A stretch of DNA of 32,000 bases from Dickeya solani IPO 2222 (GCF_001644705.1 NZ_CP015137.1:2160001-2192000); one strand, 5' to 3'. Positions 18,776 through 23,058 are shown, counted from the stretch's first letter. Program-made: numbers and translations. The notes: generated by a model from the sequence alone, not told the origin.

Positions 18776-18847
18776 TTACCCACCCTGATACCGCCCCGGC
18801 TTATGCCAGTTCATCAGCATGGCGTTCATCGCCAGCGCACTGAGCGC
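18776..18847. repeat. Left 72-bp direct repeat: non-functional copy of the YitT-gene 3' end
   Basis: 69 of 72 positions are identical to 22987-23058. On the minus strand it reads ALSALAMNAMLMNWHKPGRYQGG*, but three in-frame TGA codons lie immediately upstream, so it is an orphan remnant. Confidence 0.9.
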
Positions 18848-19249
18848 TCATCATCATCGCAGAGTATTTCGTTATTTTTTGGGTGTAGTCATTTGTTGAG
18901 TGCGGCAATTGCCGCCGCAGAAATTTGTAATGATTTACCGCAAGCCTGCAATGGTCTTTCATAAAAAGGTACTCTGAGAAATAGACTTGTAATTGTTTTT
19001 CAGAGCTATCTGATGATGTACTCATCATCGTTTTATTTAATTTTTTCTTTTTTTCAGTAGAATTTTTTAGTCGATTAAGTTCCGATCGTATTAATTTTCT
19101 GTGATGGGTTTTCGGGGTGAGTCGGAAATCTTATCTCGTATTCCTAATAGATTCTTTATGTTAAATATTGTTTTTTATTTCTGGGAGGTGAAACAACGGG
19201 TGAAGATATATTGCTAAATCGCATCTTTGATAAGTGCATGGTGGCGTTA

Positions 19250-20653
19250 ATGAATTTTCTTTCTGTCGAGTTTTCCTTTTGTTTTGTCGCCTTATTTTTG
19301 ATTTATTGGATTTTTTCTCCCTGGATAAAAATACAGAATCTTATCCTGCTTGTGACGAGTTATGGCCTCATTTTTCTATCCAGCTGGCAGTCTCTGACGG
19401 TATTGCTGTTGTTTAGTGCTTGTGTTTTTTTTCTTTTAAAGTTAGCGGTTAATGTTGAATTAAGAAAACTTTCTGTTTATTTGTTGATGTTTTTTACTGT
19501 TTTTTTCTTTGTTATGTTTAAGTATTACTCAGGTCTGCGCGATGGTGTGCAAACGACACTCAGTGAGTATGATATTACTATCAGTCTTCCCGTGCTTAAT
19601 GTGTTGCTTCCTATTGGCTTATCATTCTATATATTTAACGCCGTTAGTCTGGTTGTGTCCGTTGCAAAAGGAGAGATAAAGCAAAGTAATATTTTTAATA
19701 CTTTGCTTTATCTAAGCTTTTTCCCCACCTTTCTTTCCGGACCGATCAATCGGGCAACCAGACTATTACCCCAGATAGAGACAAAACATCCGCGCCAGCT
19801 AACAGAATGGCCACGGGCTCTGTTTCTTATTGCATTAGCGATGGCCAAGCTATTCGGCTTAAACGAATGGCTGGATGAAAACTATGTTTCATCTGTATTC
19901 ACCGATCCCGAAAATTATACTGGCTGGCAGTGTCTATTGGCGACTTACGCATGGGCCTGGCAGATTTATTTCAACTTTTCTGGTTACACTAATTTGGTAA
20001 CAGGGATTGCTATTTTACTTGGGTTTCAGATAAACGCCAACTTTGCACATCCTTATGTTGCTGAAAATATAAAAGATTTTTGGCGTCGATGGCATATAAG
20101 CCTGTCTTCATTCATTCGTGATTATATCTATATTCCGTTAGGGGGAAGTCGACAGGGATGGTGGCATACGCAACTCAACATTTTCATTGCGATGGTATTG
20201 TCTGGTGTCTGGCATGGTACCAGTATTACCTTTTTAATGTGGGGAGGAATACATGGTATCGGGTTGATTGTCTATAACTTCTGGGTTAAATATCGTCAGA
20301 CGAAAAACACAATTCTGATACCAGGATGTATAGCGCGGTTACTCACCTTTCATTTTGTTTGTCTGGCCTGGATTTTCTTTAAGGCTGGCAGTGTGCATGA
20401 TGCGTTACACATGCTGGGGATTATCTCCAGAGCAGATGTGGCGCAGTTGACGGTAAACGAGATGTGGGGAATTGCTGGTTTTATTGTTTTATCAATTGTC
20501 TATCCATCGTTAATAACACTGCGTGAAAATATCGCTAATACGCTGAAACGCCTCGAATGGTATATGGTGCCTTTCGTAATCGTTTCATTTTTAGCGTTGG
20601 TTTTCTTTTTTTCGCCTTCTGGCGTGCCGGGATTTATCTATGCGAACTTCTGA
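19250..20653 (+). CDS. MBOAT-family membrane-bound O-acyltransferase (PatA/AlgI/DltB-like)
   Basis: The ORF runs 19211..20653. The ATG at 19250 gives MNFLSVEFSFCFVALFLIYW, a typical MBOAT N-terminus, but the start is uncertain (ATG 19238 or TTG 19211 are possible). The MBOAT signature FWRRWHISLSSFIRDYIYIPLGGSR carries the catalytic His. The protein is polytopic. Confidence 0.9.
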   Translation: MNFLSVEFSFCFVALFLIYWIFSPWIKIQNLILLVTSYGLIFLSSWQSLTVLLLFSACVFFLLKLAVNVELRKLSVYLLMFFTVFFFVMFKYYSGLRDGVQTTLSEYDITISLPVLNVLLPIGLSFYIFNAVSLVVSVAKGEIKQSNIFNTLLYLSFFPTFLSGPINRATRLLPQIETKHPRQLTEWPRALFLIALAMAKLFGLNEWLDENYVSSVFTDPENYTGWQCLLATYAWAWQIYFNFSGYTNLVTGIAILLGFQINANFAHPYVAENIKDFWRRWHISLSSFIRDYIYIPLGGSRQGWWHTQLNIFIAMVLSGVWHGTSITFLMWGGIHGIGLIVYNFWVKYRQTKNTILIPGCIARLLTFHFVCLAWIFFKAGSVHDALHMLGIISRADVAQLTVNEMWGIAGFIVLSIVYPSLITLRENIANTLKRLEWYMVPFVIVSFLALVFFFSPSGVPGFIYANF

Positions 20654-21732: not shown

Positions 21733-22941
21733 ATGCCAGATAAAATGATGGGTAAAAACAGGTGTTTGATGATGACGCTCTGTCTGATTCAGCTTACATC
21801 CTGTGGCCGGGGAAATAATAGTTTTCCTCAAGCCACTACGTTTCCTGTGGCTGGGGGAAATGCGATTCAGTTAATCGATTATGGCGATCCAGGGTTGCAG
21901 CAACTCAAATATAAATTAAGTCATAGCGATAGAGAAAAGATTCACATCCTGCAATTGGGTGATTCGCATACCGCGTCGGACTTTTTTTCCGGGCAGCTGC
22001 GTCGTCATTTTAAACAGCAGTATGGAGACGGCGGCGTCGGTTTTATTAGTCCTTTGGCAATATCTGGCAACCGCTTTGATAACGTCTTGTTCCCAACCGC
22101 CAAAGGCTGGGACATGATAACCAGTCGAAAAACCAGTAATGCGGGATTTACATTAGGCGGTAATATCGCCACGCCACGTCAGGACAATAATGACGCTGAG
22201 TTGGTTGTGCGTGACACTGAGCCGACCTTTTCAATGCAAGCGCTGTACCGTAATCAGACGAACGGGAAGATACAGATCCAGCATCGGACGGTTGTTCTGC
22301 CATGCAGTCAGTCCCGCTGGACATTGAGCCAGCCGGTGACTGTCCAGTCGCCTGTCAGGTATTCGCTGGCGCCTTCGGGAGGGAGCCAACTGGCCGGATG
22401 GCTACTGTCGTCCAGTAACAGCGGTGGCGTCATGTTGAGTGCGCTTGGTATCAACGGCGCCCGGGTTTCCATGCTGGATAAATGGCGCGATAACTGGTTA
22501 TCCACGTTACAAATGCTGAAGCCGGATATGGTCATCATGGCGTACGGCACGAACGAAGCCTTTGACCAACAACTTGATATCCAACGTTATCAGCAAAATT
22601 ATAGCGAATATGTACAGGCTATCAGGCGTGTGTTGCCGGAAGCGGTCATTTTGCTGGTTGGCCCCGGTAGCAGCATCAGCAATAAAAATGGCGCATCTTG
22701 TCAGCAGCTCCAGCCAGCTTTGCTAAAACCGGTTATTCAGGCCCAGCGAGAGGTTGCCCAATCCTATCACACGCTGTTTTGGAACTGGTTTGATTACATG
22801 GGGGGAGACTGCGCTATTGAACGCTGGCAACAACAGGGAATTGCACGTCCTGACTTGATTCATCTGACCCAGCAAGGGTACGAGCGTAGTGCTGACGCGC
22901 TATGGCAGCAGTTTGCGGCATTACTCAATGCAACTCAGTAA
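21733..22941 (+). CDS. SGNH/GDSL-fold lipoprotein, Ape1-like O-acetyl esterase candidate
   Basis: 402 aa. The signal peptide has lipobox LTSC (Cys24). The SGNH blocks are LGDSHT (Ser78) and PDLIHLT (Asp374/His377), separated by a long insert. Size and triad spacing resemble Neisseria Ape1 (Ser80/Asp366/His369, from memory). The gene starts 1 nt after the upstream stop. Confidence 0.7.
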   Translation: MPDKMMGKNRCLMMTLCLIQLTSCGRGNNSFPQATTFPVAGGNAIQLIDYGDPGLQQLKYKLSHSDREKIHILQLGDSHTASDFFSGQLRRHFKQQYGDGGVGFISPLAISGNRFDNVLFPTAKGWDMITSRKTSNAGFTLGGNIATPRQDNNDAELVVRDTEPTFSMQALYRNQTNGKIQIQHRTVVLPCSQSRWTLSQPVTVQSPVRYSLAPSGGSQLAGWLLSSSNSGGVMLSALGINGARVSMLDKWRDNWLSTLQMLKPDMVIMAYGTNEAFDQQLDIQRYQQNYSEYVQAIRRVLPEAVILLVGPGSSISNKNGASCQQLQPALLKPVIQAQREVAQSYHTLFWNWFDYMGGDCAIERWQQQGIARPDLIHLTQQGYERSADALWQQFAALLNATQ

Positions 22942-22986
22942 TAGCGGAATAGCCGTTCGCCTGATGGCTACCATTACACCGCCATC

Positions 22987-23058
22987 TTACCCGCCTTGAT
23001 ACCGCCCCGGCTTATGCCAGTTCATCAGCATGGCGTTCATCGCCAGCGCGCTGAGCGC
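22987..23058. repeat. Right 72-bp direct repeat (functional 3' end of the YitT-family gene)
   Basis: This is the partner of 18776-18847. The three mismatches (positions 7, 10 and 64 of the repeat) are all third-codon-position synonymous changes in the YitT frame. Confidence 0.9.

Follow-up and report, generated by a model that had tools for sequence, protein, structure and literature searches.

Gene content and composition of the islet

The window, i.e., the whole stretch of 32,000 nt from Dickeya solani IPO 2222 that was analysed (NZ_CP015137.1:2160001-2192000), contains a small islet between a gntR-type regulator gene and yitT. The respective features, in window coordinates, are:

13537-14889, plus strand: gor, glutathione-reductase-like (Pfam Pyr_redox_2/dim; 98% amino acid identity to D. 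dadantii gor), left border of the hotspot described below
15002-17814, minus strand: symporter (Na_sulph_symp, about 15002-16423) and lyase (Lyase_1/ADSL_C, 16462-17814), from called genes and Pfam, coordinates converted from locus L001
18023-18757, plus strand: GntR/UTRA-family regulator (Pfam GntR 3e-20, UTRA 4e-14), convergent with the orphan
18758-18775, no strand: gntR-type spacer of 18 nt, CGTCGGCTGACGGCGCTT, an imperfect palindrome and, from comparison with relatives, the orphan's native flank
18776-18847, minus strand: orphan yitT 3' end, left direct repeat (24 codons plus stop; 69/72 to the real end)
18848-19151, no strand: junction J1 and AT-rich spacer (72-82% identity, to D. dadantii and D. 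dianthicola only)
19211-20653, plus strand: patA-like MBOAT acyl translocase (Pfam MBOAT 2.4e-24, residues 56-386)
20640-21731, plus strand: patB-like peptidoglycan O-acetyltransferase, DUF459/SGNH (Pfam DUF459 3e-58)
21733-22941, plus strand: ape1-like O-acetylpeptidoglycan esterase (Pfam Ape1_N 6e-12, Lipase_GDSL_2 3e-16)
22942-22986, no strand: ape1-yitT spacer of the type found with the acetylation cluster, the right copy's native flank (41/45 to D. chrysanthemi Ech1591)
22987-23634, minus strand: intact yitT, 215 amino acids (Pfam YitT_membrane 1.5e-31), its last 72 nt (22987-23058) being the right repeat

Between the two repeats there are three genes only, encoding an MBOAT, a DUF459/SGNH and an Ape1_N+SGNH protein. 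The GC content drops to 0.37-0.48 over about 18.5-22.5 kb compared to 0.54-0.62 in the flanks. Pfam and repeat searches of the islet found neither integrase or transposase domains nor terminal inverted repeats. The original prediction, i.e., an islet of atypical composition without integrase, transposase or inverted repeats, is borne out in both respects. No tRNA was found anywhere in the window and no Rfam family within 14.8-26.5 kb.

Judged by its protein families, the cargo is a patA(MBOAT)-patB-ape1 cluster for peptidoglycan O-acetylation (OAP) of the known type, since all three expected genes are found (3/3), i.e., an MBOAT PatA, a directly downstream SGNH PatB and an Ape1 esterase. The longest patA reading frame begins with a TTG start at 19211, the annotated product in public genomes has 467 amino acids, and patB begins within patA, with an overlap of 14 nt. 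Homologues of the MBOAT protein are annotated as MBOAT or peptidoglycan O-acetyltransferase. Its orthologues show 84-88% amino acid identity in D. dianthicola, D. dadantii and D. chrysanthemi, 62-67% in D. aquatica and locus L052, and at most 52% outside Dickeya. PatB matches the PDB entries 7tjb/7trr at 1e-46, ranging to 6e-37 with 8tlb; in NCBIfam, PatB is the sole and best match and scores 258 bits, which is under the equivalog cutoff of 580 bits. Ape1 matches the PDB 4k3u family at 3.6e-51 (residues 43-397). From these assignments, the cluster is expected to modify MurNAc O-6 and to modulate sensitivity to lysozyme and lytic transglycosylases. Table 1 of PMC6174289 includes D. dadantii and D. 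zeae as hypothetical carriers of OAP clusters; biochemical data on a Dickeya OAP cluster were not found in the literature searched.

A duplicated yitT end brackets the islet

The left repeat (18776-18847) and the right repeat (22987-23058) are identical at 69/72 positions, in register and at an offset of 4211. Read on the minus strand, both encode ALSALAMNAMLMNWHKPGRYQGG*, and the three mismatches (AGT/AGC Ser, CAG/CAA Gln, GGT/GGC Gly) are synonymous without exception. Past the yitT stop codons, weak similarity continues for 9 nt more, which gives 81 nt at 91%. The left copy is an orphan: three in-frame TGA codons lie ahead of it (TCATCATCA on the plus strand), and its stop is 18 nt away from the gntR TAG (18755-18757). 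The in-register comparison confirms the predicted repeat pair with its shared coding and three synonymous differences, and likewise the description of the left copy as an orphan next to the gntR stop.

A 52-nt core of the repeat has exactly two exact copies in the window (0 expected; 100 shuffles). Among the 63 loci compared, this core is found at real or orphan yitT ends only and is therefore not a dispersed repeat, the objection that had been foreseen for the prediction.

The orphan has orthologues in D. dadantii, where the outer 52 bp are intact and the inner part is decayed, and in D. dianthicola, where it is degenerate. Near-identity gives way to decay abruptly, the position being -72 for D. 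solani and -52 for D. dadantii. Another strain labelled D. solani (locus L053) carries an orphan with changes of the type L to Q and K to T, so the orphan is not under coding constraint. The states AGT/CAG/GGT of the window's orphan equal those of the functional yitT allele of L053.

Alternative layouts of the gor...yitT interval

The interval from gor to yitT, both core genes, is a variable chromosomal hotspot in Dickeya with alternative cargos; gor is conserved as its border in all Dickeya loci examined. Two layouts are intact today: gor-[symporter-lyase-gntR]-yitT and gor-[patA-patB-ape1]-yitT. D. fangzhongdai (L040-43) carries gor, symporter, lyase and gntR, followed after 14 nt by a single yitT end. 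In D. undicola, gntR lies 1 nt from a single yitT end, and the symporter/lyase stretch (the equivalent of window positions 15062-18064) is missing. These are the predicted empty sites, i.e., gntR stop, short gap and one yitT end. Relative to them, the islet sits inside the 3' end of yitT and the distal copy restores the reading frame, also as proposed. D. chrysanthemi Ech1591 and D. aquatica carry gor-OAP-yitT with neither gntR module nor orphan; the gntR module is wholly absent from D. oryzae, D. chrysanthemi and D. aquatica.

In the window, the orphan is flanked by the gntR-type spacer and the real end by the OAP-type spacer. The 18-nt spacer also stands beside the orphan in D. dadantii and L052, and the gntR-yitT spacer of D. 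fangzhongdai is related to it. In D. chrysanthemi, the OAP cluster adjoins yitT without any repeat, and the right end of the window's cluster is collinear with this arrangement. Judged by these flanks, the window is a chimera of the two layouts.

Cargos of the hotspot in other strains and species comprise cell-wall acetylation, DRT3, helicase and Fic (the PDC-S04 Fic candidate) genes. Within D. solani, neither excision nor an empty site was seen: at least 24 assemblies encode exactly the YitT protein of the window and all of them have the islet, as do all 24 contigs examined among those with this protein. Based on flanking-gene distances, the pair D. solani/D. dadantii, D. dianthicola, and the pair D. 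fangzhongdai/D. undicola are roughly equidistant.

Junctions of orphan yitT ends

We distinguish three junctions at which an orphan yitT end meets other DNA. J1, the junction of the window, is the identical join '..ATTTCGTTATTTTT' in D. solani, D. dadantii and D. dianthicola. It is common to D. solani, L053, D. dadantii and D. dianthicola, with the orphan decaying in the last two. Because J1 is common to these three species, it is, from the comparison of loci, a single old event and not a recent acquisition by this genome. A gor remnant was looked for in the J1 spacer (18848-19151) and none was found; homology to the gor-MBOAT spacer of D. chrysanthemi starts only at about 19152. Since no donor partner for 18848-19151 was found among the compared loci, a microhomology is shown for J2 only.

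The sister junction J2 fuses a 66-bp yitT end to the interior of gor (nt ~561) at the 6-bp microhomology CGCGCT. It occurs in two contexts, namely beside gntR with a divergent OAP allele (L052) and beside the OAP spacer with DRT3 (L035). In J3 (D. chrysanthemi CP128510), an orphan of 232 bp that is 100% identical to the real end is fused to helicase cargo. L035 carries three yitT-end copies in series, and orphans are always gor-proximal to the newest cargo.

Two side observations concern the orphans themselves. The window's orphan and junction are not specific to this genome, as the same are found in D. dadantii and D. dianthicola. Variable orphan length is, taken alone, compatible with site-specific integration, as elements can carry target ends of different lengths.

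Mosaic identity and exchange between species

Identity profiles single out one further feature of the window:

22300-23500, no strand: putative patch of homologous recombination that takes in the 3' portion of ape1, the right repeat and the greater part of yitT

Within this patch, the identity of the window to D. dadantii 3937 is 97-100% on a background of 94-97%, and the identity to L053 drops from about 100% to 89-98%. Given that the orphan carries the L053 allele and the right copy lies in this D. dadantii-like patch, the proposed derivation of the repeat copies from two functional alleles holds. The three synonymous differences would accordingly reflect allele exchange over the right copy, as far as identity profiles can tell.

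Exchange of whole units is seen as well. Between D. dadantii and D. chrysanthemi, the unit of J2 and DRT3 shows about 99.3% identity, compared to 83-95% for the adjacent OAP and 88-90% for yitT. This unit is delimited by breakpoints within the orphan and at the stop of yitT. In L062 the two yitT-end copies differ, yet the DRT3 unit that they enclose matches that of D. dadantii at 99.3% and is, by this identity, recent. In L052, the whole islet is an allele of 60-75% identity between flanks of 95-98%, again with breakpoints at the repeats. Breakpoints of recent exchanges are found at varying places within the repeats.

Origin of the repeat-bracketed islet

The anatomy of the locus is observed, and so are its alternative layouts, the junctions common to several species, the J2 microhomology and the mosaic identity profiles; from these we infer a recombination pathway for the islet. 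That is, the structure is probably a scar of hotspot recombination, in which an illegitimate join combined with homologous recombination and the yitT repeat then mediated the spread, and not a mobile element. This corresponds to the alternative that the original prediction had named in second place, i.e., recombination bringing in a donor yitT end, which is the best fit given both parental layouts and the matching flank spacers.

In the founding event, DNA of one layout would have entered a cell of the other layout. On one side, homologous recombination would have been anchored in yitT and beyond (in the mirror image, in gor), and on the other side an illegitimate join would have formed inside the 3' end of yitT. 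As to direction, either OAP+yitT would have entered a gntR-type genome, or a gntR module with a yitT fragment would have entered an OAP-type genome. Both cargos would end up stacked. The resident yitT terminus would be left beside gntR as the 72-bp orphan, originally perhaps longer, and the intact yitT would keep the terminus and spacer of the OAP layout. The founding was presumably a single event that took place before D. solani, D. dadantii and D. dianthicola diverged or as they did so.

For the later spread, which is partly visible in the identity profiles, the orphan would serve as left and yitT as right homology arm in RecA-type exchange. Because they are bracketed by two yitT-end copies, the unit and later cargos would be exchangeable between strains and species, either by double crossover or by excision of a circle and its re-integration. 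Such exchanges would repeatedly overwrite the repeat copies with functional alleles, hence the pristine orphan of the window that differs at synonymous sites only. An arm of 66-72 bp is short for RecA-dependent exchange, so rates may be low. As Dickeya is not known to be naturally transformable, we assume delivery by transduction or conjugation.

The reading first put forward for this locus was att-style, site-specific integration, i.e., a decayed or cis-mobilisable element with the last ~72 bp of yitT in its attP and with an integrase that was lost or acted in trans. Direct repeats that bracket a cargo and restore the gene do resemble islands in tRNA or gene 3' ends, several cargos use the same gene end while all keeping at least its last 66 bp, empty sites exist, and differences in attP length could explain orphans of 66, 72 and 232 bp. 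Yet none of the four cargo units (OAP, DRT3, helicase, divergent OAP) has an integrase or a remnant of one, the sole rve-like fragments being remnants of IS elements within the DRT3 unit. At its right end, the supposed element is collinear with repeat-free OAP-yitT genomes, and J2 joins yitT at a microhomology to the interior of gor, i.e., to chromosomal hotspot DNA and not to an attP arm. Recent breakpoints vary in position within the repeats. A phage or plasmid copy was not found: there are no phage matches, and plasmids yielded a single relative, a distant OAP cluster at 69%. On account of the recombinase-free cargos, the collinear right junction and J2, we consider integration by an absent integrase highly improbable. 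A transposon-like target-site duplication with three differences gained afterwards deserves practically no credence. The 232-bp orphan of CP128510, fully identical to the real copy, would suit it; neither terminal inverted repeats nor a transposase are present, however, and an unconstrained orphan should change everywhere instead of showing 3/3 synonymous differences that match an existing functional allele. In L062 the copies differ although the unit between them is recent (99.3%), and the duplications measure 66, 72 and 232 bp instead of a short fixed length. Duplications of 66-232 bp lie far beyond known transposon target duplications. The allele pattern of the repeat copies contradicts this candidate, and it was rejected.

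That intragenomic gene conversion alone keeps the orphan yitT-like, with no horizontal exchange after the founding, would agree with the sharp transitions from identity to decay (-72 in D. solani, -52 in D. dadantii) and with repeat copies just 4.2 kb apart. A resident donor would give an identical tract, however, and at its three differing sites the orphan instead matches another functional allele; that the right copy and entire units were imported between species is evidenced independently. We therefore consider this explanation quite improbable. A reversed polarity has a better, if minor, chance: OAP would be ancestral beside yitT and the empty sites secondary deletions between the repeats, or the gntR module with a donor yitT fragment was inserted, anchored in gor. 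OAP adjoins yitT in D. chrysanthemi and also in the deep-branching D. aquatica, and the large MBOAT divergence within Dickeya (62-88% amino acid identity) is consistent with long residence. The gntR module is variable (absent from D. oryzae, D. chrysanthemi and D. aquatica, truncated in D. undicola), direct repeats allow a precise deletion, and by flank distances D. fangzhongdai and D. undicola do not fall clearly outside the species that carry J1. On the other hand, one gain, in a common ancestor of D. solani, D. dadantii and D. dianthicola, would fit equally well, and a deletion allele was not seen within D. solani. The mirror event also needs the same mechanism, such that structure alone does not separate it from the recombination scar we favour.

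Implications

Islands that lack mobility genes are common and their arrival is usually left vague. The gor...yitT interval keeps unusually readable scars, i.e., both parental layouts and three independent orphan junctions, one of them with a microhomology and a gor fragment. In addition, the DRT3 unit is caught after a recent move between species with breakpoints inside the repeats. The preferred model, an illegitimate founding join followed by homologous spread via the orphan arm, is testable in a tractable plant pathogen. The locus also warns that direct repeats at a gene end do not by themselves prove an integrase-type element. In addition, it draws attention to gor...yitT as a hotspot with defence systems and an OAP cluster; in Dickeya, this cluster may influence how well lysozyme is tolerated and how the cell wall is turned over.

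A broader reading, to which we give slightly less than an even chance, is that a core gene's 3' end, once duplicated, works as a portable homology arm. Orphan, cargo and gene would then form a recombinase-free cassette that can be inserted, stacked and swapped between species, and would thereby build the defence/envelope hotspot between gor and yitT. If general, this mechanism would explain cargo accretion, and not mere replacement, in some integrase-less hotspots.

Comparison with known systems

The OAP clusters of Neisseria, Proteus, Campylobacter and others consist of the same three families as the islet, in the same order and on a single strand; identity of the islet to clusters outside Dickeya is low (MBOAT at most 52% amino acid identity; PatB under the equivalog cutoff).

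Like GI, IME and CIME elements in gene 3' ends, the locus shows direct repeats, a restored frame, tandem accretion and atypical composition. The repeats are attL/attR-like, but in contrast to recombinase-driven elements we found no integrase, element-specific ends or defined common crossover in the gor...yitT units. Furthermore, one 'att arm' is a native neighbour elsewhere, and another junction consists of core-gene DNA joined at a microhomology.

With integration and defence hotspots flanked by core genes, gor...yitT shares a varied cargo including defence systems (DRT3 and the PDC-S04 Fic candidate). As in hotspots that recombine via their flanks, replacements that end at the borders can be read from its identity profiles. 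Classical replacement via the flanks creates no duplication, whereas here stacked cargos are split by orphan yitT ends and one cargo boundary includes a fragment of the other border gene, gor.

A close parallel is found in the C-terminal displacement arrays of Rhs, CDI and V. cholerae T6SS effector-immunity loci, for whose orphaned 3' regions (T6SS/Rhs) homology-facilitated illegitimate recombination (HFIR) has been proposed as a model (PMC5361080); HFIR is also reported to occur during E. coli conjugation (PMC3240628). These arrays combine, as gor...yitT does, a conserved anchor with a variable region, and new cargo beside the anchor displaces older material distally such that orphaned 3' fragments remain (PMC5361080). 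They use no dedicated recombinase but homologous replacement and rarer illegitimate joins (PMC5361080, PMC3240628). Correspondingly, gor...yitT shows a conserved anchor with distally displaced orphan ends of 66, 72 and 232 bp, one microhomology junction (J2), and both parental architectures still extant with matching flanks. Two differences stand out. In the Rhs, CDI and T6SS arrays the tip of a polymorphic toxin gene is swapped, whereas yitT, which anchors the present locus, encodes a membrane protein of the housekeeping type; it is its own 3' end that has been duplicated and restored, and the cargo is unrelated to it. And unlike in displacement arrays, the yitT orphan is apparently re-used as a homology arm that moves whole units between species.

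The 72-bp repeats and the orphan yitT end

The original prediction of 72-bp direct repeats that differ only at synonymous sites was borne out by aligning the two 72-nt segments in register. Here, 69/72 positions match, and the three mismatches (AGT/AGC, CAG/CAA, GGT/GGC) are all third-position synonymous. Either copy encodes ALSALAMNAMLMNWHKPGRYQGG* on the minus strand:

18776-18847 (-): left copy, orphan yitT end beside gntR
22987-23058 (-): right copy, genuine 3' end of a 215-aa YitT-family gene (Pfam 1.5e-31)

The left copy is indeed an orphan as claimed, i.e., three in-frame TGA codons lie upstream of it and its stop is 18 nt from the gntR stop. 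A 52-nt core of the repeat occurs twice in the window (0 expected by chance) and is confined to yitT ends, real or orphan, across 63 related loci; that is, it is no dispersed repeat.

We also considered an orphan longer than 72 bp, given a D. dadantii tblastn match to YitT aa 167-215 (34% identity). This match is no proof, since it is mainly driven by the conserved last ~17 residues. Just beyond -72, ungapped identity is only about 42-57%. An originally longer orphan is possible but unproven. Public D. solani annotations include a 75-aa gene (18801-19028, minus strand) whose ORF begins in the AT-rich spacer and enters the orphan in a frame different from that of yitT; it has no Pfam match and is probably spurious.

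The functional yitT allele of L053, a D. solani-labelled strain otherwise ~100% identical to the window, has precisely the orphan's states AGT, CAG and GGT. At about 22300-23500, the identity to L053 drops to 89-98%, while that to D. dadantii 3937 is 97-100% (background 94-97%). This shift places the right copy within a homologous-recombination patch. The idea that the copies represent two functional alleles is thus supported, but by way of an allele exchange that would have occurred long after the founding event. The orphan of L053 shows L->Q and K->T type changes, which indicates that it is not under coding constraint.

Composition, cargo and distribution of the islet

GC content between the copies is 0.37-0.48 vs. 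0.54-0.62 outside, in agreement with the proposed AT-rich islet. Also the proposed absence of mobility functions holds: Pfam reports no integrase or transposase domains for any islet or flank ORF, an inverted-repeat search yields no terminal inverted repeats, and ARAGORN finds no tRNA in the window. We therefore rejected an integrase, transposase or tRNA explanation. The same applies to an RNA element in or near the repeats, since Rfam has zero matches over 14.8-26.5 kb (gathering thresholds) and a promoter/terminator scan of 18600-19300 remains at chance level. Concerning a phage origin, no phage match was found. A plasmid origin was dismissed, as the matches comprise a distant cluster from Citrobacter, Proteus chromosomes wrongly filed among plasmids and the end of an Aeromonas yitT gene. 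The former is an MBOAT-SGNH-SGNH cluster (69% nt identity) on a 159-kb Citrobacter portucalensis plasmid (NZ_CP134684.1:32961-35883), showing that clusters of the islet's type can be plasmid-borne; 3/4 plasmid-collection matches are typed mobilizable.

The islet consists of three genes in the same direction. They encode an MBOAT protein (Pfam 2e-24), a DUF459/SGNH protein similar to solved PatB structures (1e-46) and an Ape1_N+SGNH protein similar to the 4k3u Ape1 family (4e-51). For the DUF459/SGNH protein, PatB is the sole NCBIfam match, with a score under the equivalog cutoff. Based on these similarities, we assign the genes to a predicted patA-patB-ape1 peptidoglycan O-acetylation (OAP) cluster. 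Since Dickeya dadantii and D. zeae are already part of a review's list of hypothetical OAP carriers (PMC6174289, Table 1), the cargo itself is not new. Within patB, a stretch of the N-terminal region (20900-21100), located in a low-complexity Ser/Ala/Pro-rich linker before the SGNH domain, is hypervariable between D. solani and D. dadantii 3937 (60-62% identity vs. ~90-95% for the rest).

D. solani assemblies encode the identical YitT protein, and the islet is present in 24/24 contigs read. The MBOAT orthologs of D. dianthicola, D. dadantii and D. chrysanthemi share 84-88% identity with the islet's protein, those of D. aquatica and of one D. dadantii strain 62-67%, and those from outside Dickeya at most 52%. 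This pattern implies that the OAP cluster is old in Dickeya while ultimately foreign in composition. For two D. solani assemblies (GCA_013339845.1, GCA_013334165.1), frameshifts have split or fused a number of islet genes and their neighbours (a patA/patB fusion; disrupted ape1, lyase and ATP-grasp genes). Protein-level identity of the aligned segments is nonetheless mostly 100%, and the frameshifts resemble indel errors of the assemblies more than real mutations. Dickeya YitT is 73-83% identical to that of Aeromonas spp. (best tblastn segment; L013-L028, L032) vs. only ~65-68% for Erwinia, Winslowiella and Pantoea homologs, and Aeromonas DNA matches the 72-bp yitT end at ~90%. Going by these identities, the gene may have moved between orders.

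Layouts of the gor...yitT hotspot

The interval between gor (13537-14889) and yitT shows alternative architectures across the Dickeya loci compared:

Layouts of the interval between the two border genes
a: D. fangzhongdai; gor-symporter-lyase-gntR, 14 nt, single yitT end; clean empty site
b: D. undicola; like a, minus symporter, lyase and gntR 5' end; gntR stop 1 nt from yitT stop
c: D. chrysanthemi Ech1591, D. aquatica; gor-OAP-yitT, without gntR module and orphan
d: window, D. dadantii 3937, D. dianthicola; gor-gntR module-orphan-OAP-yitT
e: D. zeae group; Fic (PDC-S04 candidate) or PIN_12 cargo; D. oryzae only ~146 bp
f: D. dadantii CP110362, D. chrysanthemi L062/L063; extra DRT3 system between OAP and yitT
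g: D. chrysanthemi CP128510; helicase-containing cargo, position as in f

The empty site expected in relatives is thus provided by layout a. The D. undicola loci (L005/L044) lack the equivalent of 15062-18064, i.e., symporter, lyase, gntR promoter and the first ~10-14 codons, such that their gntR is probably a remnant. In D. dianthicola (L037:11696-11933), yitT is nearly all deleted, with a 44-bp remnant joined to a C-terminal fragment of an Lrp/AsnC gene; YitT therefore appears dispensable in that species. The symporter is missing there, too.

In layout e, one cargo (L047:10441-11835) encodes a Fic protein similar to the PADLOC candidate PDC-S04 (3e-72), plus two small ORFs, another one (L049:9994-11095) a PIN_12 protein and a 207-aa ORF; no orphan yitT end was detected at either. 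The layout f loci carry a complete DRT3 anti-phage system (L035:11723-16336; L062/L063 about 9650-14250) with Drt3a (393 aa; 2e-129) and Drt3b (645 aa; 8e-201), located at the yitT end alongside remnants of IS (rve) elements and a piece of a gor pseudogene. The layout g unit (L045:9968-13159) encodes a 770-aa UvrD-family helicase with only weak, GajB-like PADLOC matches (best 5e-11) and a 292-aa protein with neither a PADLOC match nor a Pfam family on record; both could be an undescribed defence pair.

Beyond the interval, a second, intergenic AT-rich patch (25489-26227, GC ~0.43-0.49) is located upstream of a radical-SAM/ATP-grasp/2OG-Fe oxygenase/MFS gene set. It contains a tandem array (25704-25791; 18-bp unit x4.9, TTTTTCTCAAAAGAATAG) and is poorly conserved in D. 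undicola and D. oryzae.

Junctions of the orphan ends

Compared at sequence level, the window is a chimera that combines layouts a and c. On the orphan's side, the gntR-type spacer is retained, and the ape1-yitT spacer at the real yitT end agrees at 41/45 positions with its counterpart in D. chrysanthemi Ech1591, which lacks the repeat. The orphan's inner junction J1 ('...ATTTCGTTATTTTT') is common to D. solani, L053, D. dadantii and D. dianthicola and thus arose once and is old. The D. dadantii orphan is yitT-like only over its outer 52 bp, and that of D. dianthicola is degenerate.

Two sister junctions are found for other cargos at the same site. L035 (D. dadantii CP110362) has three yitT ends in series. 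At J2, the middle one (66 bp) is fused to a degenerate internal gor fragment (aa 180-315) at a 6-bp microhomology (CGCGCT); next come IS remnants, DRT3, a new spacer of zeae type and the intact yitT. An end of one border gene joined to the interior of the other is the expected result of an illegitimate unequal join of two hotspot copies. J2 recurs in the D. dadantii strain L052 (97% over 109 bp), there directly adjoining gntR. The cargo past it is a different one, an OAP allele that is only 60-75% identical over the whole islet vs. 95-98% for both flanks. At J3 (D. chrysanthemi CP128510), the helicase cargo is joined to an orphan of 232 bp that shows no difference from the real end.

A gor remnant at J1, as at J2, was rejected (tblastn of gor vs. 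18848-19210 negative), and 18848 to about 19152 shows no similarity to the gor-MBOAT spacers of D. aquatica and D. chrysanthemi. Segments of 39 nt (100%) and 29 nt (96.6%) are common to the orphan-MBOAT spacer of D. dadantii (L034:7282-7623) and the gor-MBOAT spacer of CP128510, and inverted in D. dianthicola (L037). This suggests a small MITE-like insertion, explaining ~440 bp absent from the window.

D. dadantii CP110362 and D. chrysanthemi L062 carry nearly the same J2-DRT3 unit (~99.3% identity), which points to recent transfer, while the OAP genes (83-95%) and yitT (88-90%) beside it are less similar. High identity sets in within the orphan and breaks off at the yitT stop, and the outer part of each orphan as well as each real end are mostly of host-species type. 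Crossovers within the yitT repeats (double crossover or circle excision/re-integration) would be expected to leave such breakpoints.

Origin of the arrangement

We consider it probable that one illegitimate join plus one homologous anchor stacked two hotspot layouts, and that the arrangement would afterwards have been maintained and spread by homologous recombination in which the orphan served as one of the arms. The secondary reading of the original prediction, i.e., recombination together with a donor yitT end, is thereby essentially right, while its att-style integration is disfavoured. Integrase-type site-specific integration into the yitT end is quite improbable: none of the four units has a recombinase, the supposed element end is collinear with repeat-free genomes, and one junction is derived from gor. 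Variable orphan length was discarded as a decisive point, as attP sites can carry different lengths, such that the case rests on junction content and collinearity.

The allele pattern contradicts both a purely intragenomic conversion, which is improbable, and a target-site duplication, which is hardly credible. A reversed polarity, with the gntR module as the incoming piece or the empty sites as secondary deletions, is compatible with the same mechanism and has some, albeit the smaller, chance to be correct; flanking-gene distances, taken as pairwise identities only, give a trichotomy that favours neither polarity.

What makes the locus noteworthy are the clear scars at gor...yitT, a hotspot where defence systems accumulate as well, and a duplicated yitT end that appears to have been put to new use as a portable homology arm. 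The cargo is of a type already described, and the mechanism modifies recombination processes that are already known. The proposed stacking and spread resemble the homology-facilitated illegitimate recombination (HFIR) model put forward for T6SS/Rhs orphan arrays (PMC5361080).
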